From a bacterium (GTDB lineage: Bacteria; Bacteroidota; Bacteroidia; UKL13-3): 64,000 bases of DNA. The notes under the pieces were generated by a model. The model did not search any database, was not told the DNA's origin, and was given only the letters and a program-made list of their open reading frames with translations. Of the stretch, positions 9,941-64,000 are shown one piece after another. Numbering within the stretch: position 1 is the stretch's first letter; each line of letters opens with the position of its first letter. The translations under genes and the position numbers were made by a program. The DNA lies in NCBI GenBank assembly GCA_034439755.1, contig JAWXAZ010000008.1:44797-108796 (forward strand). The letters run 5' to 3'.

Positions 9941-9950
9941 GGTCTGATCC
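9941..9950 (+). repeat. over-represented motif copy (GGTCTGATCC)
   Basis: Exact copy; context TTTTCGGTCTGATCCAAAGC. Intergenic, directly abutting the gyrA terminator T-run. Confidence 0.9.
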
Positions 9951-10024
9951 AAAGCTTTTAACTTGATTTGACGTCTAGATAATACCGGTTAAACAAAATA
10001 TCAAAAGCATTGCTTCATAAATTA

Positions 10025-10355
10025 TTCCATTACTTAAATTAAATTAGTCCAAAGGGCAATTTGATTTAAGTATGGTAAATCCCTAAAGACAAGATGTTTA
10101 GTCCAAATATTTTTGGACTAAAACATTTCCAATACCCAGGTGATACACTTTATGTGAATTTGCCTTTAAACATAAGATTGCATCACTCTTACTTTTCTTA
10201 TAAGTTATTTGTCCAAATGCCATGCATAAGAACTGTTTCTAACAGCTAAATTCCTTTACCTTATAATCGCCATTGTGCCTATTAACGATGGTTTGAAACG
10301 AGGTTGAATACACCAAACTAATTATTTGATAAAACACATATTTTCCTGAATTCAT
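10025..10355 (-). pseudogene. remnant of IS4-family transposase (DUF4372-type N-terminus), nonsense and frameshift mutations, DDE domain missing
   Basis: Minus strand from ATG 10355 reads MNSGKYVFYQIISLVYSTSFQTIVNRHNGDYKVKEFSC*KQFLCMAFGQITYKKSKSDAILCLKANSHKVYHLGIGNVLVQKYLD*. After a frame shift it continues HLVFRDLPYLNQIALWTNLI. This matches my recollection of Bacteroidota IS4 transposase N-termini (MNxGKYVFxQ...FSCWNQFLCMxFGQLT...LYHLGI). TAG replaces the conserved Trp. Confidence 0.55.
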
Positions 10356-10489
10356 GATTAAATTATTTTCAGTAAAATAAGGCTAGTAATTCCAAAAAAA
10401 ACTCAAATCGTGTTAAGTTAAAAAACCTGGCGAACTCAATATTAACAAGCCTTTAAAAGAACTACTAATCAAAACAACGCAATGTTAGT

Positions 10490-10542
10490 AACAAAATAAT
10501 AGTCCAATTTCGATAAATATCTCATTGTACTATTATTTTGTT
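10490..10542. repeat. 14-bp perfect inverted repeat
   Basis: AACAAAATAATAGT (10490-10503) pairs with ACTATTATTTTGTT (10529-10542), with a 25-nt spacer. It lies between the transposase relic and the M28 gene stop. AT-only stem; function unknown, possibly IS-end debris. Confidence 0.5.
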
Positions 10543-10607: not shown

Positions 10608-11816
10608 TTATTTGTTGACCACTATTTTTTTGGTGACGCAGTGTTGGTTCGAACCGAATAAACTAACAAAATAAAGCCCTGGAGCAAAGTTTTCTGGGAG
10701 AATAAAATAGTTTTTGCCTTGAGATAAATCTTTGGCTTCAAATAAAATTTCACCTGTTAAATTGCTAATTTGCAGCTTGTTAAATACATTTAAATTCTCG
10801 CTTTTAATACAAAAATGATGGTCGATAGGGTTGGGATAAATTTCGAATTCTTTGCCACTTACAAGCTTAGGCAAGCCCGTTAATCCTTCTTGTGCAAATT
10901 CGCATAATGCCATGATGGCCAGCTTACTCATGTTTACAAAATAGGGGATGTGAATGTTTTCAATACTATCCGAAAAACGATGCCAATTGGGACTAAAGTC
11001 ATTGTCGTAATCTTCTGTTAAGCCAATGGCCGGAATATCCCTATTCCAAAAAGATTGGTGATCTGTATTGGGTTCACCCGGATTTTTAACGAATGATTTA
11101 AGTGGTAATTTGTGCTTCCCAATTACATGGTGCAGCCTATCTGCAAAGTCTAAGCTAAGCGGAACGCTTGGAGTCGCATGAATCATGGCCAATGAATCTT
11201 TGTTTCCATCCCATGCAATCATATCGAGGTTAATGACCGTAAGGAGCTCTGGCAAACCAGACCCGCCCGATGGAAAAGCTTTACTACCAATGAGTCCGGC
11301 TTCTTCCTCATCCCAAAAGGCCAATTGAATGGTATACGGAAAATCAATGTTCCTGAGAACACGAGCGGCTTCGAGCAATGCTGCGCAGCCACTGGCATTG
11401 TCGTCTGCTCCTTGAAAATTCGAATTTGTTCCACCCACGCAATCATAATGTGCGCAAAGCATAATCGATTTGTTTGGAAATTGGCTGCCCACTTTTTCTG
11501 CAATTACATTTCTTCCAGTGCTGCTATAATCAATGTTTCGAATGGTAAAACCATAAGATGCACAGGTATTGGCAAGGTAAGTTGCTGCCAAAGCGTTGCC
11601 GCTGTGAAATGCATACCTAGATTTAATAAGTTGCGGATTTCCATTGATTATCACTTCCTTTTTCCCAATCAGTTCTTGCATAAAATTATACAAGGAGTCG
11701 GTTTTAACCAAAGACAACGCATTGCTGCAATTGCTCCTTTGTGCTATGTTAGTGTTGGTGCACAGTAAGCCAACAATGAGCAAACAAGCATAGTTTTTAA
11801 ATTTACAAAGACGCAT
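10608..11816 (-). CDS. M28-family zinc aminopeptidase with T9SS C-terminal sorting domain
   Basis: Motifs LCAHYDCV, GADDNASGCAALLE, FWDEEEAGLIGS, INLDMIA. Signal peptide present. C-terminus IYPNPIDHHFCIKS...GLYFVSLFGSNQHCVTKKIVVNK. Confidence 0.85.
   Translation of the reverse strand: MRLCKFKNYACLLIVGLLCTNTNIAQRSNCSNALSLVKTDSLYNFMQELIGKKEVIINGNPQLIKSRYAFHSGNALAATYLANTCASYGFTIRNIDYSSTGRNVIAEKVGSQFPNKSIMLCAHYDCVGGTNSNFQGADDNASGCAALLEAARVLRNIDFPYTIQLAFWDEEEAGLIGSKAFPSGGSGLPELLTVINLDMIAWDGNKDSLAMIHATPSVPLSLDFADRLHHVIGKHKLPLKSFVKNPGEPNTDHQSFWNRDIPAIGLTEDYDNDFSPNWHRFSDSIENIHIPYFVNMSKLAIMALCEFAQEGLTGLPKLVSGKEFEIYPNPIDHHFCIKSENLNVFNKLQISNLTGEILFEAKDLSQGKNYFILPENFAPGLYFVSLFGSNQHCVTKKIVVNK
10646..10655 (-). 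repeat. over-represented motif copy (GGTTCGAACC)
   Basis: Exact copy; the minus strand reads TTATTCGGTTCGAACCAACA. Inside the M28 CDS, read as LFGSNQ. Confidence 0.9.
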
Positions 11817-13129: not shown

Positions 13130-16100
13130 TTATGGTTCTATTATAAACTTCCTTGGGTAAAATTGATATTCTGAGGAGCTAGGCAGAATGAAATAAAGTC
13201 CTGGACTTAAATCAATTAAATTTAAAATCTGGAGATTTTCATTAGCCTTGGACTCATAAGCTAGCTGGCCATTTTCATTTAAAACAACGATGTGTTCAGG
13301 AGTTTGCTTTTTAAAACTAAGGGTAATATAACCGTTCGACGGATTAGGGAATAAATCGTAAGCAATATTCTCGCGTAAAACTTCCTTTAATCCCACAAAC
13401 TTCTCCACCGTTACAAATAAATAATTGGTATCGCCAAAGCATCCAAAGCTATTTTTTTCAAGCATTTTGATAGAGGCTGTGCCAATGTTTGGAAACTGCA
13501 TGGTAGCAAAATTTGAGTCTGTTTTTATTAAATTTCCATTGGTCACCCACCAATTATAAGTGCGGTTATAATTTAAAGCACAATGATAGGTCTGGCTCTT
13601 TAATTCGTTCTTAACCAGTATTAAACCATAAATTAAATTAGCAGAAGGCCTCTCATTAAAGCTTAGGGTTTCAAAATTAGAAGTATCGTAACAGCCAAAG
13701 GCATTCCTTAAAATAACCTGATAATTTCCGCTTTTGTTTGCTGCAAAATTGTTTTGGTTCGAACCGAAAATGTTTTGATTATTTAGGCGCCATTGGTAAA
13801 AGGATTCTTGATTGGCTTCAGATGTTAATTGAATGAAATCGCCGCTGCAGGCATTAGATCCATGTTGATTTAATATTTTGGCTATTGGATTTGGGTAGGC
13901 AATAATTTGAAGTCCCGTAGAGGTGTCAATACATCCATAATTATTGGTATGTATGGCCTGAACCAAGCCAGTTTTATTGCAGTTAAATTGATTTAATGTA
14001 TCTAAAGTTGGCACGCCATTAATGAGCCAATTTACACGAGTACCCATAATTAAATTAGTTTGAATTAGGGCCTGTGCGCCAGCACAAAAGCTTGTGGGCG
14101 AATTGGTAAAAACGATGGCACTGGGACTAGGGAGTACATTTATATAATTAATGGAAGAATCTTTACATCCTTTGTTATTGGCTAATAACAATTTAACTTG
14201 ATAATACCCAGGTAAATTATATTGTTTTTGAATGGCATTTTGGTTGCTGGTATCGAAATTACTTTCGCCAAGGTGCCACTTTAAATAGGTGATTGAATCT
14301 AGAGGGTTGGCGTTAAAAGTAAAGATGTAGTTATTTCCCTTAACGCATTGGTTTGAGCCATTAAGGGTGAAATTCTTTTGGGAAATAGCATTGAAATCTA
14401 TCCTTACCGAATTTGAGGAATCGGCGTCGCCTCCTGATTTTACTAACCTTTTAATCCAAATGGTATTTGCAGGATAATATTGTGGTTGAAAAAATGGCTG
14501 GTTGGCGGAATTTAGGGCAAGGGTGAAATTTGAATTGGGGCCAACCGTAGAAATGAGCCAAGAATAGGTAAAACTACCCGAACCACCGATGGGCGTGGAG
14601 CCTGAAACTAAACTGGGATTATTGCCTTTGCACAGTGTTTGATCTCCTATAATGTGGTTGTTGGAGATTGGAATGAGGTTGCCATTTGGGGTCATAGACA
14701 CAATAAAGGCATCGTTTGTTCCTCCAATAGAAGGCTGCCAAGAACCAGTTGTAGTAATAAAACTGGTGGATGTTGTTAGTCCGGTAAAATAAATATAATT
14801 TTGAAGGCCAATTGCCACGTTGTACCCAAAATCTCCGGATAATCCGCCATAATAAGTCGACCAAATAATGAAACCGCTGGTATCAAACTTTGTAATTAAG
14901 GCGTCAAAGCCGCCTTTGTTAGTTAGTTGATGAGTGTTTATGGTCGACATTCCTGTTTCGGAACTTGTAAACCCGCACAGAACGAGGTCTCCCACCTTAT
15001 CTTGAATTACCTTATTAGAATAATCATTTCCATTATCGCCAAAATAGGTCGACCAAATCCTTAATCCAGAGGAATCAAACTTGGCCAAGAATCCATCGCC
15101 TTCGCCTTTATAAACCGATTGGAGGGCGCCCATACTGGCTATATTCAATGCAGATTGGATTGAGCCAGTAAGGTAAACGAATCCAGCTTTATCAACCATA
15201 ACAGATCTGCCGTCTTCATTGCCTTCACCACCAAAATAAGTCCCCCAAATTCGAGTACCATTGGGAGAAAACTTAACTAAAAAAGCGTCGTCTGAGGTTC
15301 CAGAGCCAGATAAAGCAGGCTGGTAAACGTTTAGTGATGCAATTGCATTTGCGGAAGAAGTAAATCCTGCTAGGTAAATATTGCCTAATAAATCGGAGGT
15401 GATGCCATTGGCGTATTCATTTCCTAAACCACCGTAGAAAGTCGACCAAATTAAGCCGCCACTGGCATTAAATTTAGCAAGGAAACCATCATTTCCTCCA
15501 CCATTTGAAGTTTGATAGGCACCCGTTGAGCTAACGCCATAAAGCGAACTGCTATAGCCACTTAAAATGATGTTATTGTTTTCGTCTGAGGTTATTCCAT
15601 AACCGTAATCAAACAAATCGCCACCAAAATAGCTCGACCAAATGCGGGTTCCAGCCTGAGATAGTTTTACCACAAATGCATCTGTAACACCCCATAACGT
15701 ATCTTGAAAAGCATTCGAACTTGCTATTCCAGCAACAGAGCCTGTTAGCCCGGCCACAATCACATGACCTTGTTTAGAAATGGAGATATCATAACAATAA
15801 TCGTTGTTTTCGCCACCATAATAAGTAGCCCAACATAACTGGCCATTTTCCAGAAACTTTAGTATAAATCCGTCGTTAAATCCGCCATAAACAGATTGAA
15901 AAGCACCATTGGTGGCTATGTTTGAGGCAGAGTAAGTATAACCAGTGGTATAAATATTCCCAAGCGTATCGGTGGCAATACTATTGCCATTTTCATAATA
16001 AGTGCCGCCAAAATAGGTTGCCCAAGGACTAGGGTCCACCACCAATTTCTCGCCATCTTTTTTCTCTGGACAAACCAAGCCAATACTGCCATTTAAAAGC

Positions 16101-16792
16101 AAGTTAAATTTAACCAAGGTCGATTTTTCCTTTAAATCATTGGTGAGAAAATAGCTGTAGGGGATTTTTTCTGAGATAAGGCCAAGAGGTGTTTTAATGT
16201 TTAAAACATTTCCATCTGAACCAATTTCGAAGGGAGCGCCTAAAACGTCTAGTTGGAAATCTTGTAGCTTAGAACCGGGGTGAGCGATAATGTTGTATTT
16301 AAATTTTTCTCCAATCACAAACTCTATATCTATGCCTGGGTAAATGTCTTTATAGAGAATCTTGGAATAATGCCGAATAAATACGGCTAAATCGCCAGAT
16401 ATTTCGTTATAATAGTTTATATATGAGCTATTTGGTTCAGACCGAATGATTTTTTTATTTGTGTTTGCATCTTTAAATATAAAATCAACACGTTGCGATT
16501 GAAATTGTGGGTTCGTTTTTGGAAATTGAAAGTGCTTGTTGGTTTTGGGGTTCGAATTAACTTTGCCAATAAGTTTGTTTATTTGGTAGCTGAAACCTGT
16601 TTTAGTGAGCTGAACTTGAAAATTTTCTTGGTTATAAATAAATAAAACATCTGGATTGGGGAGTCTAGATTGGTTCATAACCTGACCACGATTTTCAACA
16701 AAACCAAATATTGGGCTTGCGAAGGCTTGGTATGAATTTAAAATGCCGAGGCAAAAGCTTAGGAGTAAAATATATTGCTTTGGCAGATTCAT
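13130..16792 (-). CDS. giant secreted SBBP-repeat (beta-propeller) protein with Ig/PKD-like modules and T9SS type A sorting domain
   Basis: 1220 aa with a signal peptide. About 8 tandem repeats of the pattern IW(S/A)TY(F/Y)GG..(N/D)...I..D..GN(I/V)Y..G.T.S. C-terminus LFPNPSNGYITLSF...GLYFILP. The N-terminal region is paralogous to that of the 39146 gene. Confidence 0.85.
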   Translation of the reverse strand: MNLPKQYILLLSFCLGILNSYQAFASPIFGFVENRGQVMNQSRLPNPDVLFIYNQENFQVQLTKTGFSYQINKLIGKVNSNPKTNKHFQFPKTNPQFQSQRVDFIFKDANTNKKIIRSEPNSSYINYYNEISGDLAVFIRHYSKILYKDIYPGIDIEFVIGEKFKYNIIAHPGSKLQDFQLDVLGAPFEIGSDGNVLNIKTPLGLISEKIPYSYFLTNDLKEKSTLVKFNLLLNGSIGLVCPEKKDGEKLVVDPSPWATYFGGTYYENGNSIATDTLGNIYTTGYTYSASNIATNGAFQSVYGGFNDGFILKFLENGQLCWATYYGGENNDYCYDISISKQGHVIVAGLTGSVAGIASSNAFQDTLWGVTDAFVVKLSQAGTRIWSSYFGGDLFDYGYGITSDENNNIILSGYSSSLYGVSSTGAYQTSNGGGNDGFLAKFNASGGLIWSTFYGGLGNEYANGITSDLLGNIYLAGFTSSANAIASLNVYQPALSGSGTSDDAFLVKFSPNGTRIWGTYFGGEGNEDGRSVMVDKAGFVYLTGSIQSALNIASMGALQSVYKGEGDGFLAKFDSSGLRIWSTYFGDNGNDYSNKVIQDKVGDLVLCGFTSSETGMSTINTHQLTNKGGFDALITKFDTSGFIIWSTYYGGLSGDFGYNVAIGLQNYIYFTGLTTSTSFITTTGSWQPSIGGTNDAFIVSMTPNGNLIPISNNHIIGDQTLCKGNNPSLVSGSTPIGGSGSFTYSWLISTVGPNSNFTLALNSANQPFFQPQYYPANTIWIKRLVKSGGDADSSNSVRIDFNAISQKNFTLNGSNQCVKGNNYIFTFNANPLDSITYLKWHLGESNFDTSNQNAIQKQYNLPGYYQVKLLLANNKGCKDSSINYINVLPSPSAIVFTNSPTSFCAGAQALIQTNLIMGTRVNWLINGVPTLDTLNQFNCNKTGLVQAIHTNNYGCIDTSTGLQIIAYPNPIAKILNQHGSNACSGDFIQLTSEANQESFYQWRLNNQNIFGSNQNNFAANKSGNYQVILRNAFGCYDTSNFETLSFNERPSANLIYGLILVKNELKSQTYHCALNYNRTYNWWVTNGNLIKTDSNFATMQFPNIGTASIKMLEKNSFGCFGDTNYLFVTVEKFVGLKEVLRENIAYDLFPNPSNGYITLSFKKQTPEHIVVLNENGQLAYESKANENLQILNLIDLSPGLYFILPSSSEYQFYPRKFIIEP
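13756..13765 (-). repeat. over-represented motif copy (GGTTCGAACC)
   Basis: Exact copy; the minus strand reads ATTTTCGGTTCGAACCAAAA. Inside the CDS, read as IFGSNQ. Confidence 0.9.
16434..16443 (-). repeat. over-represented motif copy (GGTCTGAACC)
   Basis: Exact copy; the minus strand reads TCATTCGGTCTGAACCAAAT. Inside the same giant CDS but in a different frame (IRSEPN). Confidence 0.9.
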
Positions 16793-17010
16793 TGTTTTGG
16801 TTGGAGATTAAGACAGAGTAAAGGTACAACTCTGGACGAAACAAAGCAATAAATTTTAAGGCTAATGATTTATCAATGTGTGGATAAGCCCAGTATTATG
16901 CGGTTTATTTCTTCTTTCTTTTTCTCTATAATTAATATTATGTTAAATAGAAATTGAAATAACGCCAGTATTGGTTATTATATTCAGGGTAATTATAAAC
17001 TGAACGGACA

Positions 17011-17049
17011 TAAAAAAATCCCCAACGCTACAGGTGTATTGTTGGGGAT
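17011..17049 (-). terminator. rho-independent terminator of the TPR gene
   Basis: Stem ATCCCCAAC-14 nt-GTTGGGGAT. On the minus strand it is followed by TTTTTTTATG, about 25 nt after the stop at 17073. Confidence 0.7.
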
Positions 17050-17072
17050 TAATTTTACAAAAAAGTTGAATC

Positions 17073-18458
17073 CTATTCGAACAGTTCTCTCCTCTTTTTA
17101 GTTTCCATTGTTTTCTTTTCGTCGTTTAAGTTTGCATAAACTTGTTGGATGCTATACAAAATATCGCGCATGTAAGCATATTTTTCTTTTTTCTTTTCAG
17201 CGGTTTCTTCACCCTTTGCTTCTGCAATTGCAAGTGCTTGATTAAAATACCCTAATGCTGTTGTTAAAATCTCATCCTTTTGTTTTCTCAATGGATTATA
17301 ACGTTTATCATATTCGGCACCTTGTAGATTACTTGGAATTGCATTCATTTTTTCTACAACCTCGGTGGTTTTGTTATTGGTTAATGCGCCAAGGTTGTAA
17401 AATGCATCTATATAATCTGGATTCAATTCCACCACCTTTTTATACTCAATTTCGGCTTTAGAGGCATTTTCTTTGGCGCGTGCTGCTTGTGCATCGTATT
17501 GACTCTGGTAATTGTTAGCTGCCAATGTATAAGTTGCTTTTTTAGCAGGCACCTTTTCTGTTTGTGCTTTTCTTTTTAAGGTTGAAACGGTATCTCTTAA
17601 GTTTTTAGCTTTTTTATTAATATCGTTTGTTAAATTATCATACACACTGCCTCTAACAAATATAAGCGAAGCATCATCAGGATTAATTTCAATGGCCGAG
17701 TTCAATTTATTCAACAATAAATCTTGGCGACCCATGTTCATATAGATATTAAGCTCTTGATTGATTAAATCCTTTTCGCTTGGGTATTTAGTCCTACCCT
17801 GCTCAATAAATTTTAAGGCAGAAGTGGTGTCGGTTTCCTCAAGATATATATTCGACATTTGCATGTAAATTAGGTGATCATTATAATTTAGATCCATTAA
17901 TTTCTGCAAATATTGTTTGGCTTTTGCGTTGTCATTTGACTGAACAGCAGAATAAGCCATATATAAATAGATATTCTTTTCTGACAAATTATTTTTCTTT
18001 AAATCCTCATTTTTATCATAAGGAATTATATCTAAAACAATTTGGTAGTATTTAATGGCATCTTTATAGTTTTTATTCTCATAAGCGCTAATACCCTTGT
18101 TAAAACACATAAATGCGCTGTTTAATATTGCCTGATCTTTGCAATAATACGCGTAGCGATTTTTAGCATCATTTTCAATGCACTTTTTGCATCCATTATA
18201 AAAGTTTTCTGCTAAATCGGCATCAACAAGTTTTTCATAAGCGGGATTTCTATAGATGGTATCGAGCACCGCAACATAATAAAACCACGCTTTGGGATCA
18301 TTTTTGGTTTCTGAATTTACAATTGCCAATTCAATTGATTTTTTAGCGTCTTCTACCTCGCCATTTCTCAAATAAATTGCGGCACTTTCTACATTACTTC
18401 TTTGGGCAAATCCTTGGAAACTCAAAAGAGTTAGGACTGCTATCAATAGTCTTTTCAT
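17073..18458 (-). CDS. TPR-repeat protein, secreted
   Basis: ATG 18458 gives the signal peptide MKRLLIAVLTLLSFQGFAQ (the track ORF extends 13 codons upstream). Multiple TPR-like A/Y/N-rich helical repeats. Confidence 0.75.
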   Translation of the reverse strand: MKRLLIAVLTLLSFQGFAQRSNVESAAIYLRNGEVEDAKKSIELAIVNSETKNDPKAWFYYVAVLDTIYRNPAYEKLVDADLAENFYNGCKKCIENDAKNRYAYYCKDQAILNSAFMCFNKGISAYENKNYKDAIKYYQIVLDIIPYDKNEDLKKNNLSEKNIYLYMAYSAVQSNDNAKAKQYLQKLMDLNYNDHLIYMQMSNIYLEETDTTSALKFIEQGRTKYPSEKDLINQELNIYMNMGRQDLLLNKLNSAIEINPDDASLIFVRGSVYDNLTNDINKKAKNLRDTVSTLKRKAQTEKVPAKKATYTLAANNYQSQYDAQAARAKENASKAEIEYKKVVELNPDYIDAFYNLGALTNNKTTEVVEKMNAIPSNLQGAEYDKRYNPLRKQKDEILTTALGYFNQALAIAEAKGEETAEKKKEKYAYMRDILYSIQQVYANLNDEKKTMETKKRRELFE

Positions 18459-18580
18459 TAGATGCTGGTTTAAATAGTACTTTACAAACATATTCATTTC
18501 TTTTTTTAGTTCAAATGCGATTCATCACCTTTTTTAATGCTGATTTAAACTTTTGCGTTAAACTTTCGATATATAGTCAT

Positions 18581-18614
18581 AAAAAAAGAGCTTCAGGTTT
18601 CCCCTGAAGCTCTT
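18581..18614 (-). terminator. rho-independent terminator of the M16 peptidase gene
   Basis: 12-bp stem AAGAGCTTCAGG-tttcc-CCTGAAGCTCTT. On the minus strand it is followed by a run of 7 T. Confidence 0.8.
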
Positions 18615-18631
18615 TTCTGTTTCAAGAATGA

Positions 18632-21538
18632 TTAATTCTTTTCGTAGGTTGCTACCTCTACATCTTTATAATCTTGGATTTTATATCCTAATTTTTCAAG
18701 TGGTGTTTTAACTTTTTCTTTGTCACCTACAATCAAAATGGTCATTTTTTCTGGTTGCAAAATTTCTTTGGCAATGGCATTAATTTCTTCCTTTGTTAAA
18801 GATTTGATGGTTACGTTTTGCTGACGGATATAATCCTTAGGCAAGTTATACTCAACTAAGCGGTTTAAGAAATTTGCCTTTTGGAAGTTGGTTTCATAAC
18901 GCAATGCATCACTTTGGGTAATAGATTTTTTCATAAAATCTAGTTCCTCATCATTAATACCATTGCTTTTATAATTATTTACTTCATACATAATTTCTTT
19001 CAATGCACTATCTGTTGCCGAAGTTCTAACTCCAGTAGATATTCCATAAACACCTTGGCGATCTTTAAATCCACTGTTATAAGAGCGAATACCATAGGTA
19101 AATCCTTTTTCTTCACGCAAGTTTAGGTTTAAACGGCTATTGAAACTACCACCCAATGGATAGTTCATGGCATTGGTTTTAAAATATTTACCATTCCAAT
19201 CGTATGTTTGACCCAATTGTCCCACACGGATTTCTGATTGCGCTGCCTTATACTTGTCAACCAGCATAATTTGATTGCCATTTGCATTGTTTGCCACGGG
19301 CGCAGCTATTACTGGGAATACAGGGTTCTTCTTTTTCCAATTTTTCAAGAAGGTTGTTTTCGACAAAATCTCAGCTTCGGTTACATCACCTACAATGGTT
19401 AAAGTAGCAAAATCTGGTGCATAGAATTTATCGTAAAACGACTGAACATCCTTAATAGTCATGGCTTTAATTGATTTTAAAGTACCCGAAACAGGCTCTG
19501 CTGTAATACTTTTGCCATAAATCAACTTACTAAAAGCTAAATCGGCTGTAGCTGCTGCATCATATTTTTGCGAATTTACATTTTGATAGTTTTGAGATTG
19601 GTTCAGCTTAAAGTCTTCTGAGGTAAATTTAGGACGCATAAATTTTTCTTCTACTAATTTTAAGGTAGCATCTAAGTTCCTTTTCATACAAACTACTTGC
19701 ATAAAATGGTTATCAGAGCCAGTACCAAAGCTAATTGAACTACCCAATTTATCTAATTCGTTTTCGAATTGCTCACTGGTATAAGTTTGTGTTGCCTCAC
19801 TCATCATATCAGCAGTTAAGTTAGACAAACCTGTTTTTGAAGCATCTCCAACTGCAATATTTCCACCCTTCATGCTTAATAATATGGTTACAATTGGAGA
19901 TTCTTTCGTTTCAATTCCAATTACTTTAATACCATTATCCCAATTGGCGCTATAAAAGTTAGGAATTTCAGTCAATTTTGCTGCACCCGCTTCAGGGCGA
20001 TTGCTGCGATCGAAATTGTCTTTTGGTGTAGTATAGGAAAGTCCTTTATATTCTAACTCAGTTTTCCCTGTAGAACCTACGCTTTGCGGCTCTTTGGTTT
20101 CTTCTTTGTTGGCTGCTGCATTTGCTTTTTTAGGGAAGATGTTAACTAAAGTGTAGTTCTTTCCTTTAATGTATTGGCGGAATACGCGCATTACATCCTC
20201 TTTAGTTACTTTATTATAACGAGCCATTTCATCGCCCATGTTATAACCTTGCGCCAATTTTGGTGTTCCATGACTTAAATACCACATCGTACTTAAAATA
20301 CTGGCGCGACTGCCCACGCTTTGCATGCTTTGAATAATGCTAGTTTCAAACTGCCCTTTAGCACGACTTAAATCGTCATCGGAAACACCTTTTGAATCAA
20401 ATTCATTTAAACTAGCAAGCATTCCCTTTTCAATATCGTTGTCGCCTTCAAAGTTTGGCATGGCTATAAAGATTATACCAAACTCACCCGACAATTCAAA
20501 ACCAGAGTTAAAAGAAAATACTTGAATGGCTTTTTGCGGCTCAGGTTTAACAAAATTCTTGTATAAAATAGAATTGTTGCCATTACCCAAAATAAATCCC
20601 AACACATCTAATGCAGCTTCATCAGGATGATATTGCTTTACAGAAGGGTAAGTAAAAGCATACATAGGAGCAAATACATTGTCGCCATAGTTTACATATT
20701 TATTATCTGGTAATCTTACTGGCTCAGTTCTTTGCGTGCGCACTTCTGGACCTTTAGGAATTGGGCCAAAATATTTTTCAGATAATCTCACAACATCTGC
20801 CGCTTTTACATCACCAGAAACAACCAAGCAAGCATTGTTTGGTCCGTACCAGCGCATGAAGAAATTTTTCAAATCTTCTACATTTACCCTGTCTAAATCT
20901 TCCAAGTAACCAATTATAGGCCAGCTATAAGGATGTCCTTGCGGGTACAAAGCTGCATCATTAATTTCGCCTCTTTTGCCATAAGGAACATTGTCAATAT
21001 TTTGACCTTTTTCATTTTTAACTGTTGAACGCTGAACCTCAAACTTCTTTTGAGTTACAGAATCCAGCAAGAAACCCATTCTGTCTGCTTCGAGCCACAA
21101 TGCTGTTTCCAAATAATTTGAAGGTAAAGTTTCAAAATAATTTGTCCTATCGCGGTTGGTGGTTCCGTTCATTTGACCACCCGCACCTTGAACAATTTTA
21201 AAATGCTCTTCATCTTTTACGTGCAAGGAACCTTGGAACATCATGTGTTCAAAGAAATGTGCAAAGCCAGATTTTCCAGGAGTTTCTCTGGCTGAACCAA
21301 CATGATAAGTTACCTCAACATGAACAATTGGATCGGAATGATCCTCGTGAACGATGAGTGTAAGCCCATTTGGCAATAGATACTTTTCGTAACTAATTTT
21401 TAATTCACCAGGGTTAGCCGTTACTTTTTCAAGCAAAGTAGTTTTGGCCGGGATAGTGGCTGCGGGTGTTTGTGAATTCGCTGACTGAATACCCATCAGA
21501 AAAGCAAAAGCACCTGCAAATAATAAACCTCTTTTCAT
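18632..21538 (-). CDS. M16-family (pitrilysin/insulinase-like) zinc peptidase, fused double unit
   Basis: Inverted zincin motif HFFEHMMFQG (HXXEH). 968 aa, equivalent to two M16 active/inactive domain pairs. Signal peptide present. Confidence 0.88.
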   Translation of the reverse strand: MKRGLLFAGAFAFLMGIQSANSQTPAATIPAKTTLLEKVTANPGELKISYEKYLLPNGLTLIVHEDHSDPIVHVEVTYHVGSARETPGKSGFAHFFEHMMFQGSLHVKDEEHFKIVQGAGGQMNGTTNRDRTNYFETLPSNYLETALWLEADRMGFLLDSVTQKKFEVQRSTVKNEKGQNIDNVPYGKRGEINDAALYPQGHPYSWPIIGYLEDLDRVNVEDLKNFFMRWYGPNNACLVVSGDVKAADVVRLSEKYFGPIPKGPEVRTQRTEPVRLPDNKYVNYGDNVFAPMYAFTYPSVKQYHPDEAALDVLGFILGNGNNSILYKNFVKPEPQKAIQVFSFNSGFELSGEFGIIFIAMPNFEGDNDIEKGMLASLNEFDSKGVSDDDLSRAKGQFETSIIQSMQSVGSRASILSTMWYLSHGTPKLAQGYNMGDEMARYNKVTKEDVMRVFRQYIKGKNYTLVNIFPKKANAAANKEETKEPQSVGSTGKTELEYKGLSYTTPKDNFDRSNRPEAGAAKLTEIPNFYSANWDNGIKVIGIETKESPIVTILLSMKGGNIAVGDASKTGLSNLTADMMSEATQTYTSEQFENELDKLGSSISFGTGSDNHFMQVVCMKRNLDATLKLVEEKFMRPKFTSEDFKLNQSQNYQNVNSQKYDAAATADLAFSKLIYGKSITAEPVSGTLKSIKAMTIKDVQSFYDKFYAPDFATLTIVGDVTEAEILSKTTFLKNWKKKNPVFPVIAAPVANNANGNQIMLVDKYKAAQSEIRVGQLGQTYDWNGKYFKTNAMNYPLGGSFNSRLNLNLREEKGFTYGIRSYNSGFKDRQGVYGISTGVRTSATDSALKEIMYEVNNYKSNGINDEELDFMKKSITQSDALRYETNFQKANFLNRLVEYNLPKDYIRQQNVTIKSLTKEEINAIAKEILQPEKMTILIVGDKEKVKTPLEKLGYKIQDYKDVEVATYEKN

Positions 21539-26420: not shown

Positions 26421-26439
26421 TGGGTGCGCAAATATTTTT

Positions 26440-53483: not shown

Positions 53484-53509
53484 CGTTATTATTTTATTTA
53501 TTTAATTTC

Positions 53510-53519: not shown

Positions 53520-53631
53520 AAAAGGAACTGCGAATAAAGCCTCTTCCTCTTGCAAACAAAAATAAAGGGCAAGTATGGAGTAGCAAAAACAAGTTATGCA
53601 CAAATTTACCCTAAATTACAGAAAAAGTGCA

Positions 53632-54621
53632 TTAGTTTTCTTGCCGACCAATCATCTTCTCGGGTAAATAAGCCGGAAAATTGTTGATTTCTGTGGTATC
53701 GGGCTTGTTAATTGGCTTTATTTCGAAGTTAGGCTGCCCAGCATTTACCCAGGCAGTGTACCAAAAAGAAGCCACGCAAAGGATTGCTGCTCGCATGCGC
53801 CTTTCAACCATGCCATCTAATTGCTTGTGGTAAGCCTGCGATAAAAGCGGACTATAAACCTTTTGCAATTGAGTGCCTTTTGCCTCAAAAGAATATTTCT
53901 GCGATTCTTTAAAATTTTGTTGCAAGATTTTCTCGAATAGAAAAACAGAATCTAAGGCCGCATAACTTCCTTCTACGGCAATCCATGCGGCATCAATTGG
54001 CTGATTAATGTAGGTGGCGCTGCCCACAAAAAAATCATACTCACCAGCAAATAATTCGGGCAAGCGCGATTCAAAAAAGCCATGTATGCCATGTTGGTTG
54101 GTTTGCTGTCCATTATAATTGGAAGTAGTATGCAAAGGCACGTGGGCATCGCCAATATAGTGACCAATTTCGGCGGCATATTTTAATATTTTTGGCGTGT
54201 TATTCTCTTCAAAAGCTTGCGTTAAACTGCGCAACATCCATTGAATATTCCAAGGTGCAATTCCGTAGGTATGAAGGGTATCCTTGCTGTATTTTTCCAT
54301 GGCCTTTTGATAAGAACGAGGCAGGGTATCGAAAGGCAAAACACGCTCATAATAATCCATATCAATATAGTGTTTTACGCCTTCGCCCTCTACTAAATAC
54401 CGCCTTTTATCTGGGTCAACGGCATGTTCGCTGATAAAATCAATATGCAATTTAAAAAAACCAAACATCTCTGGAGGAAGGCAAAAAACTGCCAGTCTGT
54501 TTATTTTTTGATGTGCGTAAAATCCCCAAGAATGGACTGTATTTAATTGCGAAAACAAGAGTACTATACCCAATATATAGCCCTTATAATTTAAAAGTTT
54601 AAAGCGATTGTGGTGTTTCAT
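53632..54621 (-). CDS. zinc-dependent phospholipase C / S1-P1 nuclease-like family protein
   Basis: After the signal peptide, WGFYAHQKINRLAV and several His/Asp metal-ligand contexts (HYIDMD, GDAHVPLHTT) resemble the family as I remember it. Confidence 0.6.
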   Translation of the reverse strand: MKHHNRFKLLNYKGYILGIVLLFSQLNTVHSWGFYAHQKINRLAVFCLPPEMFGFFKLHIDFISEHAVDPDKRRYLVEGEGVKHYIDMDYYERVLPFDTLPRSYQKAMEKYSKDTLHTYGIAPWNIQWMLRSLTQAFEENNTPKILKYAAEIGHYIGDAHVPLHTTSNYNGQQTNQHGIHGFFESRLPELFAGEYDFFVGSATYINQPIDAAWIAVEGSYAALDSVFLFEKILQQNFKESQKYSFEAKGTQLQKVYSPLLSQAYHKQLDGMVERRMRAAILCVASFWYTAWVNAGQPNFEIKPINKPDTTEINNFPAYLPEKMIGRQEN

Positions 54622-54704
54622 GGCACCTCAAATCTCTTAATAATTTAATGAAATTCCATGATTTGCTACCAAGTAAAATCGGGTAATTAGGATTTATTTT
54701 TTTC

Positions 54705-54714
54705 GGTCTGAACC
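54705..54714 (+). repeat. over-represented motif copy (GGTCTGAACC), left arm of an inverted pair
   Basis: Exact copy; context TTTTCGGTCTGAACCAAAAC. It pairs with TTTGGATCAG at 54723-54732, which overlaps the helicase stop codon. Confidence 0.9.
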
Positions 54715-54728
54715 AAAACGCGTTTGGA

Positions 54729-56045
54729 TCAGCTCGCCTCTTCCATCCTAATTTTGCGGCCTTTGAGTTTCTCTTCCTTAATAAGAATGAGTGTTTGTTT
54801 GAGCTTGGCTGCATTCACGGCAACATAGGCAGAATGGTCTAACACCTCAATTTTCCCTAGATCGTCTTTGATAAGTTTGCCTTTTTGCAGGAGCATGCCC
54901 ACAATGTCCATTTTATTTATTTTATCCTTCTTACCAGCTTTGATAAAAAGCGTTTTCCATTTGGGCGCTGGAGGCAATTTAAAATCATTAGGGAGGGTGA
55001 TTTCTTTTGGTTTTTCTTCTAAATATTCTGGCAAATAATCGGAGGCATCTAGTAAGAAATAAACCTCGCCATTGGCGTTCATTCTAGCGGTTCTGCCATT
55101 TCTGTGAATCATGGCATCTTCCTTTAAAGGCAATTGATAATGCACTACTACATCTATTTCGGGGATATCTAATCCGCGAGAGGCAAGGTCTGTAGTAATA
55201 ATTAATCGCGTGGTGCCATTGCGCATTTTTATCAAGGTTTTTTCACGGTCTATTTGTTCTAATCCGCCATGATAAAAGCCATGAATAATTTTATGCTTAT
55301 GAAGTTGGTCGCTAATTCGGTTAACGGCATCGCGGTGGTTACAAAAAACGATGGCCGATTTCTCTTGCAATTGGCCAATCAATAGCATCAAAGCTTCCAA
55401 TTTATCATCGCCCGGCACACGCACAAAGAACTGCTCTAAGCCAACTAAAGGCTGTTGAACACCCTGCGTAAAATCGAGCATAATGGGATCTTTTAGTCCT
55501 ACAAATTTGGGTATTTCTTTGATGGCGGTTGCCGAGGTAAGGATTCTACTTTTTACCTTTTTCATTTGCTGAATGATAAAGGCCATTTCCTCTTGAAAAC
55601 CTGCTTCTAATGACTTGTCAAACTCATCTAAAATGAGGTATTGCGCTTTACTTAAATTGATGTTATTTTCTCTAACGTGGTAGGCAATTCGGCCTGGTGT
55701 TCCTACCAGCACAGCAGGGGTTTGGGATAAGTTGTTTTTTTCTATTCTTACCGAATGTCCGCCATAGCAACAGTTAATTTTATGCGGGGTGCCCATTTGT
55801 TTAAAGACCTGTTCAATTTGCAGTGCAAGCTCGCGTGTAGGAACAATAATTAAGGCCAATATATCGCCCTTGGTAGCAGCCTCAATTTTGGCCACCAATG
55901 GCAAAAAGAAAGCTAGGGTTTTTCCTGAGCCAGTTGGCGAAATGAGGGTAATATCTGATTGCTGATTAAAAGCATCTATCATGGATAGCTGCATTTCGTT
56001 CAACTGAGTAATATTGAATTTAGGTAATATTGATTGGTAAGACAT
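54729..56045 (-). CDS. DEAD-box ATP-dependent RNA helicase with DbpA-type C-terminal RNA-binding domain
   Basis: Motif I PTGSGKT, motif II as DEFD, motif III SAT, motif VI HRNGRTAR. The C-terminal IKAGKKDKINKMDIVGML...IEVLDHSAYVAV is DbpA-like. Confidence 0.88.
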   Translation of the reverse strand: MSYQSILPKFNITQLNEMQLSMIDAFNQQSDITLISPTGSGKTLAFFLPLVAKIEAATKGDILALIIVPTRELALQIEQVFKQMGTPHKINCCYGGHSVRIEKNNLSQTPAVLVGTPGRIAYHVRENNINLSKAQYLILDEFDKSLEAGFQEEMAFIIQQMKKVKSRILTSATAIKEIPKFVGLKDPIMLDFTQGVQQPLVGLEQFFVRVPGDDKLEALMLLIGQLQEKSAIVFCNHRDAVNRISDQLHKHKIIHGFYHGGLEQIDREKTLIKMRNGTTRLIITTDLASRGLDIPEIDVVVHYQLPLKEDAMIHRNGRTARMNANGEVYFLLDASDYLPEYLEEKPKEITLPNDFKLPPAPKWKTLFIKAGKKDKINKMDIVGMLLQKGKLIKDDLGKIEVLDHSAYVAVNAAKLKQTLILIKEEKLKGRKIRMEEAS

Positions 56046-57733: not shown

Positions 57734-58687
57734 ATGGCACATTTTGATTTCGAAAAACCTATTCAAGAACTAGAAGACCAGTTAGAAGAAGTAATGAAGG
57801 TTCATGAAAAGGGCAAAGTTGATATGCATTCCAAAATGGAAGAGTTGAAACTTAAAATCCTTGAAACAAAAAAAGAAGTTTATAGCAAACTTAATGGTTG
57901 GCAACGCGTTCAAATTAGTCGCCACCCAGACAGACCTTATACCCTAGATTATATTGAAAACTGTTTCGACAATTTTATTGAGCTTCATGGCGATAGAACC
58001 GTGAAGGACGATAAAGCCATGGTGGGTGGATTTGCCTCTATTAATGGCACTAGTGTAATGGTTATTGGTCAGCAAAAAGGTCGCAATACCAAGCAACGTC
58101 AATTTAGAAACTTTGGCATGCCTAACCCAGAAGGGTACAGAAAGGCTTTGCGTTTGATGAAAATGGCAGAACGCTTTCAATTGCCTATAGTGTGTTTAAT
58201 AGACACGCCGGGTGCATCTCCAGGCCTAGAGGCAGAAGAACGCGGACAAGGTGAGGCTATTGCTAGGAACCTATATGAAATGAGCGTATTTAAGGTGCCT
58301 ATCGTTTGTATTATTATTGGCGAAGGCGCATCGGGTGGTGCATTGGGAATTGGTGTGGGAGATCGCGTTTTAATGATGGAGAATACATGGTATTCTGTAA
58401 TATCGCCAGAATCTTGCTCTTCTATTCTTTGGAGAAGCTGGGAGCATAAAGAAAAAGCAGCGGAGGCGTTAAAATTAACGGCTACTGATATGCTTAATAA
58501 TAAATTGATCGACGGCATTATTCCTGAGCCACTGGGCGGCGCTCATGCAGATACCGCGCAAAACTATATTACCTTTAAAGAAAACCTTGCGATAGAGTTA
58601 AACAATTTAATTGGTATAGACGCCGATAAATTGGTTCAGACCAGAATTGAAAAATTCTCTTTGATGGGTGATTTTATTGAAGGGTAG
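57734..58687 (+). CDS. accA: acetyl-CoA carboxylase carboxyltransferase subunit alpha
   Basis: 317 aa. Motifs [51 protein letters not shown]. Confidence 0.92.
58633..58642 (-). repeat. over-represented motif copy (GGTCTGAACC)
   Basis: Exact copy; the plus strand reads AATTGGTTCAGACCAGAATT. Inside accA, read as KLVQTR. Confidence 0.9.
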
Positions 58688-61485: not shown

Positions 61486-61497
61486 AAATAAATTTCT

Positions 61498-63150
61498 TTA
61501 TGCTTGAAAATAAGGTATTAATTCTTCTTTAAAATACTGCAAGGCATTTCTTATAGGCAATGGCAAACCACCGCCCAAGGCACATAATGAACCTATCTCC
61601 ATGGTGGTAATTAAATCATCAAATAAGACAGCATCAATTTTGTCCCCATCGCCTTTTGCGCCCTTTATTAACTCATGGCCTCGGGTTGATCCTAACCTAC
61701 ATGGAAAGCACTTTCCACAACTTTCGTGGGCAGTAAACTGAAACAAATGTTCTATATAATCGATGATGGGATAATCGTTTGGCAAACAAACCACCGAGGC
61801 ATGTCCCAACAAAAATTTCTGTGAAGCAAAGGTTTCAAAATCGATACTTAAATCGCCAATCTTGCTCATTGGCACCAATCCGCCTAATGGTCCGCCAATG
61901 TGCATGGCTTTAATGGGCGATTTAAATCCCATTCCCAATTCTTCAATCACCACTTTTAGTGGCGTTCCCATTTCCACCTCATAAATTCCGGGTCTATTAA
62001 AAAAGCCATCCAATGAAACCAATTTTGTTCCACTCGATTTGCCCTTTCCAAGGGCGGCAAATGCAGCCCCACCATTTTTAATTACATAAGGAATATTGGC
62101 CAATGTTTCCACATTATTTACAACAGTTGGCTTGTTAAACAAACCTTGCTGGGTAGGATAAGGCGGCCTTACACGCACCTCTGGTCTTTGTCCTTCAATG
62201 CTAGAAAGCAATGCGGTTTCTTCCCCGCAAATATAAGCCCCTAGGCCAGGAATTATTTTAAAATCAAAGTTAAAGCCTGAGCCAAATATATCTTTTCCGA
62301 TATACCCCTTTTGGCGCAAAAACTCGATGGCAATGCGCGTATTTTCAATTGACTTTGGATACTCGGCCCTAATGTATAAAACACCCGCACTAGCACCCAT
62401 CACATAACCCGCCAACATCATTCCAAGCAATACCAAGTGCACCTGTTGCTCCAATAAATACCTATCGCTGTATGCACCTGGGTCGCCCTCATCTGCATTA
62501 CAAACAACAAATTTGGCGGTACCGGGTGTATTTTTTGCCGACTCTAACTTAAACCCAATTGGGAATCCAGCACCACCTCTACCGCGCAAACCAGAAGCTT
62601 TCAACTCGGCTAATAATGCATCTGGCGTTTGGTTCAGGGCATGTTTCCATAACGCATAAAAAGCAGTGGGATCTTGTGGTGTTGAGGTTAATATTTGTTG
62701 ACCGTAACTGCCTACATAATATGATTCTTGCTTTGGGTAAACATCCCTTTTTATGTCATCTAAATGCGCAATTGCCTGGCCCGAGTAGTTGCTCCCATTA
62801 TAATGAAAGGCGCCATTTTCGTGACACCTTCCCAAACAACACATTTCGCCTACTTGGTCTGAACCAAACTCTTTTTGGAGCGCAGCATGAATATTGTTTT
62901 GCGTACCTGCGGTTAAGCATGAGCTGCCGTTACAGACAAACACTTTTTTACCTTTATTTTGGGGACGTAAAAAATCGTAAAAACTTGTGGTGCCAAATAC
63001 ATTGGCTTTGCCAAATAAAAATTCCTCTGCCAACAAATCGAGGTCTTTAGCATTTGGCGTTCCAGATTCCCTGGCAAGAACTCCCAACTCTTCGAAAAGA
63101 TTTTTATCCAACCCTTTACGACCAGAAAGTTCACTTAAATTTTTCGACAT
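61498..63150 (-). CDS. NuoE-like/NuoF-like fused diaphorase subunit of formate dehydrogenase (NAD, FMN and Fe-S binding)
   Basis: N-terminal thioredoxin-like 2Fe-2S domain (CNGSSCLTAG...CLGRCHENGA). NuoF core GLRGRGGAGFP, CNADEGDPGA, and 4Fe-4S ESCGKCFPCR. 12 nt upstream of the alpha subunit gene. Confidence 0.85.
   Translation of the reverse strand: MSKNLSELSGRKGLDKNLFEELGVLARESGTPNAKDLDLLAEEFLFGKANVFGTTSFYDFLRPQNKGKKVFVCNGSSCLTAGTQNNIHAALQKEFGSDQVGEMCCLGRCHENGAFHYNGSNYSGQAIAHLDDIKRDVYPKQESYYVGSYGQQILTSTPQDPTAFYALWKHALNQTPDALLAELKASGLRGRGGAGFPIGFKLESAKNTPGTAKFVVCNADEGDPGAYSDRYLLEQQVHLVLLGMMLAGYVMGASAGVLYIRAEYPKSIENTRIAIEFLRQKGYIGKDIFGSGFNFDFKIIPGLGAYICGEETALLSSIEGQRPEVRVRPPYPTQQGLFNKPTVVNNVETLANIPYVIKNGGAAFAALGKGKSSGTKLVSLDGFFNRPGIYEVEMGTPLKVVIEELGMGFKSPIKAMHIGGPLGGLVPMSKIGDLSIDFETFASQKFLLGHASVVCLPNDYPIIDYIEHLFQFTAHESCGKCFPCRLGSTRGHELIKGAKGDGDKIDAVLFDDLITTMEIGSLCALGGGLPLPIRNALQYFKEELIPYFQA
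62856..62865 (+). repeat. over-represented motif copy (GGTCTGAACC)
   Basis: Exact copy; context TACTTGGTCTGAACCAAACT. Inside the NuoF-like CDS, antisense to the coding strand (codons read EFGSDQ). Confidence 0.9.
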
Positions 63151-63261
63151 ATACCTTGTAGAATTATATTTCGTTTATCAATTTTTCGGATGCTTTGGCA
63201 AGGTAATAAAAAAGAAGGTTTGAAAAGCAATTTTACAAAGCTTATTATCGCTTTTATTTTC

Positions 63262-64000
63262 ATGAATCCCCGTAAGCTGATAAATATTAAAAAAAACAAT
63301 AAAAACGGACTGCTATTAGGGCTATTTTTCCTGCTTGGATTTTGGGCTGTGGGTCAGGAATACTTTAACCCCAATGACCTTAAAAATCCTAAGAAAAATG
63401 GGCCTGCTGTGAAGGCAAAATTTAAGGAAGAGTTGGTTTATGAGTATAAAGTTCCTAAAGGAAAGCATGCAGTATTTTTAAAAAATGGCTTAAGGAGTTC
63501 TAACTTTATTGCGCCTCAATTATGGAGCAATATAAGAGATACGGTATACCCATACAGGGTAGATATTGTATATTCTAGGTATCCTGTGCACGATGGTGTT
63601 TACAACGAAATTTATCCTTTATTGTGCAATAGACTTATTCATTTGTTTGATTTGGACCCATCGTTAAACGATGTAGATTTATCTTGGCGAACCATTTTGC
63701 AAACGCATATAGACAATGATGAGCAGGTGAATACCCTTTTTCATGGAGTAGTTATTTGGTATAGAACACCTGCGGAAGAAGGCGCATTAGGCGATAATAA
63801 GGATTCCATTTCTGGCGCAAAGCCATTGGATCAGACCGAAAAATTGATCCAAGGTGGATACCAAGAAATGGTAAGCACCATTGAAGGCATGAAGGCTAGC
63901 TCTTTGATAAGCGATTCTTTAAAACAGGCCTTAATTGCCAAGCCATTAGATGTGCAAAAGCAAATTTTGCAAGCGCAACTTTCTATGCCAGCGCCTAAAG
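63262..64000 (+). CDS. hypothetical secreted protein, C-terminus cut by window edge
   Basis: Not in the ORF track. From ATG 63262 I read 246 codons without a stop to the window end (MNPRKLINIKKNNKNGLLLGLFFLLGFWAVGQEYFNPN...). Signal-anchor-like N-terminus. Divergent from the FDH operon. Confidence 0.65.
   Translation, partial: MNPRKLINIKKNNKNGLLLGLFFLLGFWAVGQEYFNPNDLKNPKKNGPAVKAKFKEELVYEYKVPKGKHAVFLKNGLRSSNFIAPQLWSNIRDTVYPYRVDIVYSRYPVHDGVYNEIYPLLCNRLIHLFDLDPSLNDVDLSWRTILQTHIDNDEQVNTLFHGVVIWYRTPAEEGALGDNKDSISGAKPLDQTEKLIQGGYQEMVSTIEGMKASSLISDSLKQALIAKPLDVQKQILQAQLSMPAPK
63828..63837 (-). repeat. over-represented motif copy (GGTCTGATCC)
   Basis: Exact copy; the minus strand reads TTTTTCGGTCTGATCCAATG. 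Inside the last ORF (read PLDQTE). TTGGATCA 63826-63833 is repeated inverted as TGATCCAA at 63845-63852. Confidence 0.9.

Follow-up and report, generated by a model that had tools for sequence, protein, structure and literature searches.

Results

A recurrent 15-mer in an ordinary Bacteroidota chromosome region

The window analyzed here, by which we mean the whole 64-kb stretch of contig JAWXAZ010000008.1 (assembly GCA_034439755.1), has the Pfam content of an ordinary Bacteroidota chromosome: gyrB-like and gyrA genes, type IX secretion system (T9SS) cargo genes with Por_Secre_tail or CHU_C domains, and genes for GldD, a TonB-dependent receptor, accA, accC, mnmA, HtrA, Sir2, MutY, SSB, HU, RNase G, QueG, DnaN, a DEAD helicase and NuoF/G-like proteins. 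The T9SS sorting domains and GldD bear out the assignment to Bacteroidota. Running through genes and spacers alike is a family of three related 10-nt words, present in 18 copies, which a first-pass annotation had likened to a DNA uptake sequence (DUS); every coordinate that it gave was reproduced by exact string search. The word GGTCTGAACC is on the forward strand at 46201, 54705 and 62856 and on the reverse strand at 16434, 23893, 26440, 38368, 50416 and 58633, GGTCTGATCC is on the forward strand at 9941, 41748 and 49808 and on the reverse at 63828, and the palindromic GGTTCGAACC, which makes up 5 of the 18 copies, is at 10646, 13756, 38051, 50930 and 53510. A third variant at the central YY, GGTTTGAWCC, is also found in the window.

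With the copies oriented by their flanks, the conserved unit is an asymmetric 15-mer, TTCGGTCTGAACCAA, of the pattern TTCGGT-YY-GA-W-CCAA, which spans positions -3 to +11 of the 10-mer; beyond these 15 nt the information is at background or zero, and the flanks are not conserved. The asymmetry consists of a C at position -1 in 13 of the 18 copies and of an AA solely on the 3' side, and the core is quasi-palindromic (GGTTC|GAACC, with half-sites TT..GGT and ACC..AA). The strongest part is the 3' core (YYGAACCAA), the 5' half being weaker: CTGAACCAA occurs 21 times in the window, just nine of them with GGT upstream, as GGTCTGAACCAA, and in 211 kb of clade DNA sampled without bias there are 143 YYGAWCCAA cores, 50 with GGT and 25 with TTCGGT upstream. 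A large halo of partial copies surrounds the perfect ones, since sites with no more than three mismatches to the 15-mer number 35 in the window against 1.6 expected. The density in the window is about 0.3 strict or 0.5 relaxed copies per kb, and if the window is typical there would be roughly 1000 copies per genome.

Could chance, codon usage or a recurrent peptide account for this repetition? Dinucleotide shuffles expect 0.07 copies of GGTCTGAWCC and 0.04 of GGTTCGAACC, and no shuffle gave more than one. Against the 18 observed, order-3 Markov simulation of the window yields a mean of 0.05 copies of the three-word family (maximum 1) and order-5 simulation a mean of 1.9 (maximum 6), the order-5 model having been trained on the 64 kb alone and already absorbing the motif's own hexamers. 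Permutation of synonymous codons within genes, which leaves the proteins and the codon usage of each gene unchanged, gives 0.53 copies (maximum 4) against the 13 observed in coding sequence (CDS), and 1.1 copies of the 3' core CTGAACCAA against 18. The enrichment of the 15-mer is 100- to 300-fold. The claimed over-representation therefore stands far above the dinucleotide, Markov and codon nulls, and the outcome that the first-pass annotation had named as fatal to its claim, a frequency no higher than a Markov or codon null, is not what the window shows. Thirteen of the 18 copies are inside genes, seven in sense and six in antisense, and are read in five of the six frames; the five frames and the codon permutation together establish conservation at the DNA rather than the protein level, as had been proposed, and on these grounds a peptide motif or codon usage was rejected as the source of the motif.

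Clade boundary and dialects

Species-representative genomes were scanned for the exact 15-mer, and the seed copy was left out of all density figures. Matches fell in JBILVK01 (15 loci), CAILJQ01 (14), JAKRSG01 (3), JAIOYZ01 (3), JBILJL01, CANHDN01 and CAMDHZ01, and the remainder were scattered singles in random taxa, at 71 unrelated loci. Non-seed 10-mers of the family occur at 0.85-2.5 per 10 kb in JBILVK, CAILJQ, JAKRSG, JAIOYZ and CANHDN, against 0.04 in the 71 unrelated loci. The single-locus JBILJL and CAMDHZ have zero extra 10-mers and, at no more than two mismatches, 2.2 and 3.75 extra copies per 10 kb; across the metagenome-assembled genomes (MAGs) of the clade the density at this threshold is 1.2-3.75 per 10 kb. 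In all, at least seven related lake MAG species, and syntenic metagenome contigs as well, have the motif, with 1-5 copies in every 10 kb.

Metagenome contigs anchored on dnaN provided an unbiased sample. GGTYYGAWCC was found where DnaN is at least 85% identical (loci L114-L117 and L124) and once in L119 (80%), and it was not found in about 25 dnaN-anchored loci at 72-80% DnaN identity, eight of them 21 kb long. Six queG-anchored loci share the synteny of the window from the CHU_C gene to dnaN (L201, GCA_002256395.1; L203; L205, GCA_021740845.1; L208; L209; L211); their QueG is 75-80% identical and they contain 3-12 copies per 12-21 kb against 0.07-0.14 expected. The non-syntenic and more distant L207 and L210 have two copies each. 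The lineages differ at the central pyrimidines: the window prefers CT over TC over TT, TT is favored in CAILJQ, JAIOYZ, L201 and L205, and in L115 and L116 most of the signal comes from the core yTGAACCAAa, with 11 copies in 13 kb. The comparison with relatives that the first-pass annotation had called for thus revealed a clade-specific motif with dialects at YY. The nearest named isolates by QueG are Flavobacteriaceae, at 67-70% identity, and on this one protein the host probably belongs to a Flavobacteriales-related uncultured freshwater lineage.

Several other repeats were seen in these loci. The motif was not found in the 21 kb of a sister lineage, L118 (JADMIO011701069.1; DnaN 82% identical, GC 47%), where AAACCGGT occurs 13 times and the palindrome AACCGGTT six times, about 20-fold over the composition expectation; CCGG-containing 8-mers such as AAACCGGT were rejected as sister dialects because outliers of similar size (12- to 20-fold) turn up in all outgroup loci, and their significance is doubtful. 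L207 (GCA_040960315.1, JBFOMO010000020.1), which has mere traces of the motif, carries at 16350-19200 a palindrome-centered repeat, ...GGTGGCGACCCCGATAGCTATCGGGGTGGTAG..., in five copies, three at 88-bp spacing; it adjoins a GIY-YIG open reading frame (ORF), resembles repetitive extragenic palindromes (REP) and is unrelated to the motif. L117 has a tandem heptamer, AGTTAAG, about 10 times at 5523-5590, and L136 a 121-bp tandem unit about four times at 77-440.

Two scans of viral contigs (2.9 million), which may not include phages of the clade, returned chance single matches, at a density, seeds excluded, of 0.12 copies per 10 kb over 1 Mb. A phage origin or a phage-borne motif has no support, the viral matches being chance singles and one 15-nt tandem repeat in a giant-virus MAG. 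The latter (L217, 8932-8976) consists of three head-to-tail copies of TTCGGTTTGAACC[AC]A, and its match to the TT dialect is coincidental.

Placement of the copies in genes and spacers

Five of the 18 copies are intergenic in a window of which 7.1% is non-coding (coding density 92.9%), an enrichment of about 4-fold (P=0.007), and each lies 14-58 nt past a stop codon; their number and gene-end distances are as the first-pass annotation gave them. TTCGGTCTGATCCAA (9938-9952, +) comes straight after the U-run of the hairpin that terminates gyrA, at 58 nt from the stop codon of that gene. TTAGGTCTGAACCAA (26438-26452, -) sits in the spacer between the desaturase gene, whose stop is 24 nt away, and a CcmB-like gene, whose start is 19 nt away, and CACGGTCTGAACCAA (38366-38380, -) is 42 nt past the Sir2 stop. 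TTCGGTTCGAACCAA (53507-53521, +) is 26 nt upstream of the dnaN start, and a perfect 15-mer (54702-54716, +) is 14 nt after the DEAD-helicase stop, where it forms the left arm of the sole inverted pair in the window. Its degenerate partner, GGCGAGCTGATCCAA (54724-54738, -), retains the 3' core CTGATCCAA alone.

Several of the in-gene copies are in permissive settings, namely a signal peptide, C-terminal tails and sorting domains. TTCGGTTCGAACCAA, a TC variant, is read in sense as FGSNQ in the T9SS C-terminal sorting domain of an M28 peptidase gene (10644-10658, -) and again as FGSNQ, in sense, in a DUF7948/SBBP T9SS cargo gene (13754-13768, -), which also holds a perfect TTCGGTCTGAACCAA in another frame (16432-16446, -; IRSEPN). 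TTCGGTCTGAACCTA falls in the signal peptide of an S8 subtilase gene (23891-23905, -; FGLNL, aa 12), a further TTCGGTTCGAACCAA is antisense in a CN-hydrolase gene (38048-38062, +; CWFEPN), and TCCGGTCTGATCCAA is in sense in a DUF7948/CHU_C gene (41745-41759, +; LRSDPI). The mutY gene has an antisense perfect 15-mer (46198-46212, +; PWFRPK) and a TT variant, TTCGGTTTGATCCAA (46722-46736, -), that was missing from the first-pass count. In rng, TTTGGTCTGATCCAA (49805-49819, +) encodes the conserved peptide FGLIQ. The queG gene has GCTGGTCTGAACCAA in antisense (50414-50428, -; FGSDQL) and CTCGGTTCGAACCAA (50927-50941, +; ARFEPN). Toward the end of the window, TCTGGTCTGAACCAA is antisense near the 3' end of accA (58631-58645, -; LVQTR, aa 300 of 317), CTTGGTCTGAACCAA is antisense in the NuoF-like gene (62853-62867, +; FGSDQV), and a second TTCGGTCTGATCCAA is antisense in the last, unannotated ORF (63826-63840, -; LDQTE).

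Degenerate copies with two mismatches to TTCGGTYYGAWCCAA, spanning 4219-56509, start at 4219 (+), 4596 (-), 11697 (+), 16210 (+), 27768 (+), 28924 (+), 36228 (-) and 56495 (-), and CTGAACCAA also occurs as a bare 3' core, lacking the 5' half, at about a dozen places, for example 6316, 13960, 19598, 21294, 26171, 35134, 42279, 48965, 51824 and 62629. Between dnaN and the DEAD helicase lies an unannotated 329-aa ORF (53632-54621, -), with motif copies on both sides, whose position is kept in relatives. It has weak matches to S1/P1 nuclease (E 7e-5) and Zn-dependent phospholipase C (3e-4), both below Pfam cut-offs; a secreted nuclease at this place would bear on DNA uptake, although the annotation is weak.

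Origin of copies at orthologous sites

How do the copies arise? Site maps derived from BLAST, in which the window aligns with its relatives at about 73% nucleotide identity, show that the copies at 46722, 49805, 50414, 50927 and 53507 have counterparts at matching positions in most relatives, frequently of a different dialect, and that orthologous sites differ by substitutions only, with zero indels. The perfect 15-mer of mutY is identical in L203, the TT variant further along the gene is kept as a motif in L203, L205 and L115, and motif-like sequence stands at the position orthologous to 41745-41759 in L201 and L205. In the rng gene the FGLIQ codons read TTTGGTCTGATCCAA in the window and TTTGGCTTAATTCAA both in L145 (DnaN 53% identical) and in L201, a member of the clade in which this site is without the motif. 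The family-wide conserved RFEPN of QueG is written in motif-forming codons, with TT or TC variants in all aligned relatives, and the FGSDQ copy of the same gene, present at the same place in five of six aligned loci, falls in a loop that is hypervariable across the protein family. The copy upstream of dnaN is identical in L203, a TT variant in L115 and lost in L201. Identity inside motifs is modestly higher than in the flanks (75.5% versus 70.9%) despite the dialect changes. The copies are thus made in place by point substitution, through synonymous codons where the peptide allows, through residue changes in variable loops and termini, and through free change in spacers, and many are retained across about 27% divergence while the central pyrimidines drift between CT, TT and TC. 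At the site orthologous to 50927 in queG, L124 has two head-to-tail cores (CTGAACCAAGGTTTGAACCAAA) where the window has one.

The same sites bear on whether the copies might be a miniature mobile repeat of the miniature inverted-repeat transposable element (MITE) or REP kind, for which nothing speaks beyond the repetition itself. The homology ends at 15 nt, the 13 copies inside CDS include in-frame ones in conserved genes whose length is unchanged relative to orthologues, and the motif was found independently in many assemblies. Extended homologous flanks, which the first-pass annotation had named as grounds for abandoning its proposal, were looked for; the flanks are unconserved and the orthologues differ by substitutions. 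A mobile repeat was rejected on this evidence, and we give practically no credence to it or to an artefact of chance, codon usage or peptide composition.

Retention at orthologous sites would also be expected of an array of binding sites for an abundant sequence-specific chromosomal protein, whether nucleoid-associated, condensin-loading, involved in segregation or self-marking for defence, in which each site is selected on its own and no uptake drive is needed. The quasi-palindromic core is compatible with a dimeric binder, the copies are orientation-neutral and spread across core genes, and less conserved DNA is not depleted of them. Known arrays (parS, Noc-binding sites (NBS), SlmA-binding sites (SBS) and matS), however, have tens of copies and not about 1000, sites are freely lost and gained between relatives, as with the copy upstream of dnaN, and the excess of partial copies and the drift of YY by lineage fit a balance of mutation and drive better. 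No candidate protein was identified, and we consider such an array rather unlikely, if still a serious competitor.

Orientation and RNA structure

The equal orientation claimed at first pass (9:9) holds when the flanks are used to assign a direction to the palindromic copies, and among relaxed window copies the ratio is 21:14, although the cumulative GC skew climbs across the whole window. The 138 12-mer copies in clade loci show no association with local GC skew (p=0.13), and clade copies are divided 46:63 between sense and antisense strands of genes (p=0.125). There is therefore no polarity of the Chi or KOPS (FtsK orienting polar sequence) type, as the first-pass annotation had maintained. 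A Chi-like or KOPS-like polar signal read by RecBCD/AddAB or FtsK would explain a chromosome-wide over-represented oligomer at kilobase-scale spacing, the density of about 1 per 2-4 kb resembling that of Chi, and a chromosomal signature that is absent from viral contigs. Such signals, among which we include the architecture imparting sequences (AIMS), are however 5-8 nt long, few-fold enriched and strongly co-oriented with replication, whereas the lake motif is far longer, enriched in spacers and non-polar despite the steady rise of the skew. We rejected this explanation for want of polarity and judge it highly improbable.

The further claim of inverted pairs at gene ends is weak: there is a single imperfect pair, at 54702-54738, and its weak hairpin (-11.4 kcal/mol, z -1.0, not significant) is no better than those of shuffled sequences. 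The gyrA terminator hairpin at 9907-9940 is strong (-24.8 kcal/mol, z -6.8), with the motif copy just outside its stem, and the other intergenic copies gave no structure on folding. Terminator-like sites occur in the window at chance frequency; one, at 50945-50924, covers the in-gene queG copy at 50927-50941. An RNA-level element or terminator component was rejected in view of the missing sense-strand bias, the exclusion of the motif from the gyrA stem and folds that do not exceed shuffles.

Discussion

The motif is real, statistically overwhelming and clade-bounded. Once chance, effects of codons or peptides, a mobile repeat, an RNA element and a polar signal of the Chi/KOPS kind have been excluded, as our data allow, what is left is a DNA-level, clade-specific force that turns near-matches into the 15-mer wherever this is tolerated. 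The lake motif is a member of the class of hyper-abundant genomic words, and within this class it most resembles uptake sequences. In Neisseriaceae and Pasteurellaceae, the surface receptor for transformation prefers fragments that bear the word, and recombination converts near-matches to matches, a process of molecular drive. Like the DUS of Neisseriaceae (GCCGTCTGAA, the 12-mer AT-DUS, with the minor pilin ComP as receptor), the lake motif is a short (10-15 nt) asymmetric word at about 0.3-1 copy per kb, in both orientations, within CDS and enriched in spacers, restricted to a clade and split into lineage dialects. Like the uptake signal sequence (USS) of Pasteurellaceae (AAGTGCGGT or ACAAGCGGT with AT-rich flanks), it has a strong core with a weaker extension and many copies with one or two mismatches, occurs within genes at places where the peptide can accommodate it, at times with changed residues in variable regions, and has counterparts to the two or more USS subtypes of related lineages. 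The distributional hallmarks of DUS and USS, that is abundance, orientation neutrality, presence in CDS with enrichment in spacers, core-plus-extension structure with mismatched copies, and dialects, are all seen here. The likeness to DUS and USS in density, length and tolerance within CDS that was drawn at first pass holds, and intergenic enrichment, clade specificity and dialects can be added to it. The USS is unrelated in sequence and comes from another phylum. DUS and lake motif both contain the heptamer GTCTGAA, an unexplained overlap that we treat as coincidence. It is curious that CTGAA is conserved in both, and GTCTGAACCAA occurs in Neisseria papers, where DUS test oligonucleotides run on as ...GCCGTCTGAACCAA..., 11 nt being common to the lake motif.

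The motif is also reminiscent of HIP1 (highly iterated palindrome 1; GCGATCGC) of cyanobacteria, a hyper-abundant, lineage-specific short word found in genes and spacers, with conservation at orthologous sites and, in the lake motif, a partly palindromic core. For HIP1, a by-product of repair or modification has been proposed, and a clade-specific process of this type, such as very short patch (VSP) mismatch correction or one linked to a methyltransferase, would explain the origin of copies by substitution, their presence in CDS and spacers and in both orientations, their orthologous conservation and the sharp clade limits; the variants, moreover, contain known methylation-type cores (TTCGAA, GATC, GAAC/GTTC). 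However, HIP1 is a strict 8-bp palindrome with a methylation site, whereas the dominant form of the lake motif is asymmetric and 15 nt long, only the minority of 5 in 18 copies having the palindromic core, and known repair biases concern 4-8-mers with a far smaller effect. No linked enzyme was seen in the window. We regard this explanation as improbable. In our tests the motif showed neither a strict palindrome of the HIP1 type, nor the leading-strand co-orientation of Chi/KOPS, nor a MITE/REP body.

We tentatively interpret the motif as an analogue of DNA uptake sequences, with a confidence that stays somewhat below even; competence, a receptor and uptake bias would all follow from the interpretation. 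It is favored because biased uptake followed by recombination is the only experimentally understood force of such a kind. In the mechanism that we envisage, a surface DNA receptor of a natural-transformation system would prefer fragments bearing the 15-mer, uptake and homologous recombination would steadily turn near-matches into matches, and the 15-mer would then also tag DNA as that of the same species. The interpretation is biologically plausible because pilus-free competence and a preference for own DNA are documented in Flavobacteriales. Riemerella anatipestifer and R. columbina are naturally competent, and R. columbina prefers its own DNA, although no specific motif was found there and the top k-mers were merely A-rich runs (PMC7965970). 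The Riemerella uptake machinery works without pili and includes Bacteroidota-specific proteins (PMC8459023). Judged by QueG relatives, R. columbina is of the same order-level lineage as the window host, and a motif of this kind would account for the preference for own DNA that R. columbina has been shown by experiment to have without pili (PMC7965970, PMC8459023), with the difference that the lake organisms are uncultured. The apparatus may be Riemerella-like, with an outer-membrane barrel and a surface lipoprotein alongside ComEC, DprA and ComF, and its receptor would be new because the Bacteroidota machinery would be pilus-independent. At 30676-33918 (-) the window encodes a TonB-dependent receptor with an N-terminal CarboxypepD_reg domain and, adjoining it, a DUF4249 protein. 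In domain class this receptor matches the outer-membrane protein that Riemerella needs for transformation. We do not claim the two as a Riemerella-type uptake pair, the partner being DUF4249 and not DUF5689/DUF5017 (PMC8459023).

Several observations weigh against the uptake interpretation. Our counts cover the 64-kb window and about 400 kb of related loci and are not genome-wide. Among the genes of the 64-kb window, Pfam revealed no competence gene, be it ComP or a type IV pilus, ComEC, DprA, ComF, the Riemerella-type outer-membrane protein or the DUF5689 lipoprotein, and the hosts are uncultured. Competent Bacteroidota, moreover, belong to another phylum than the Neisseriaceae and do without type IV pili and ComP (PMC8459023). 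The perfect consensus is a minority of copies, unlike in the Neisseria DUS, and a quasi-palindromic motif would be just as apt for a protein that binds DNA as a dimer. Terminators harbor about half of the copies of real DUS and USS and more than 90% of their inverted pairs (10.1101/2025.10.24.684340), whereas the lake motif has one weak pair and no role in terminator stems, and none of the terminator-like sites listed for the window overlaps an intergenic copy. Finally, the non-conserved or accessory DNA of relatives showed no detectable depletion of the motif (5.2 versus 3.4 copies per 10 kb); a motif-free accessory stretch in L201 was not seen again in L205 or L209.

What would an uptake sequence in these bacteria mean? 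In the more than 40 years since uptake sequences became known, only two proteobacterial families have furnished examples. Surveys of 2025-2026 report them only for Neisseriaceae and Pasteurellaceae (10.1101/2025.10.24.684340; PMC13020248), and the literature yielded nothing relevant on the motif string or on uptake sequences in Bacteroidota or Flavobacteria. It is possible, although we hold this more cautiously than the uptake interpretation itself, that the motif is the first self-recognition sequence outside Proteobacteria, recognized by an uptake apparatus of the Bacteroidota type, independent of pili, in a lake group that is abundant and uncultured. If so, uptake specificity evolved independently at least three times, here with a non-pilin receptor, and a sequence tag of this kind could explain the self-DNA preference of Riemerella. 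A third unrelated case would test molecular drive by biased uptake as a general route to genome-wide words and, pili being absent from competent Bacteroidota, would be a pointer to sequence-specific DNA receptors of a new kind. Motif-tagged DNA would give a handle for the genetic manipulation of these abundant uncultured lake bacteria and for tracking gene flow among them. Even if the motif has another function, a 15-mer that is confined to one clade, is enriched roughly 100-fold and reshapes the choice of codons and certain protein loops is the mark of an unexplained genome-scale force.

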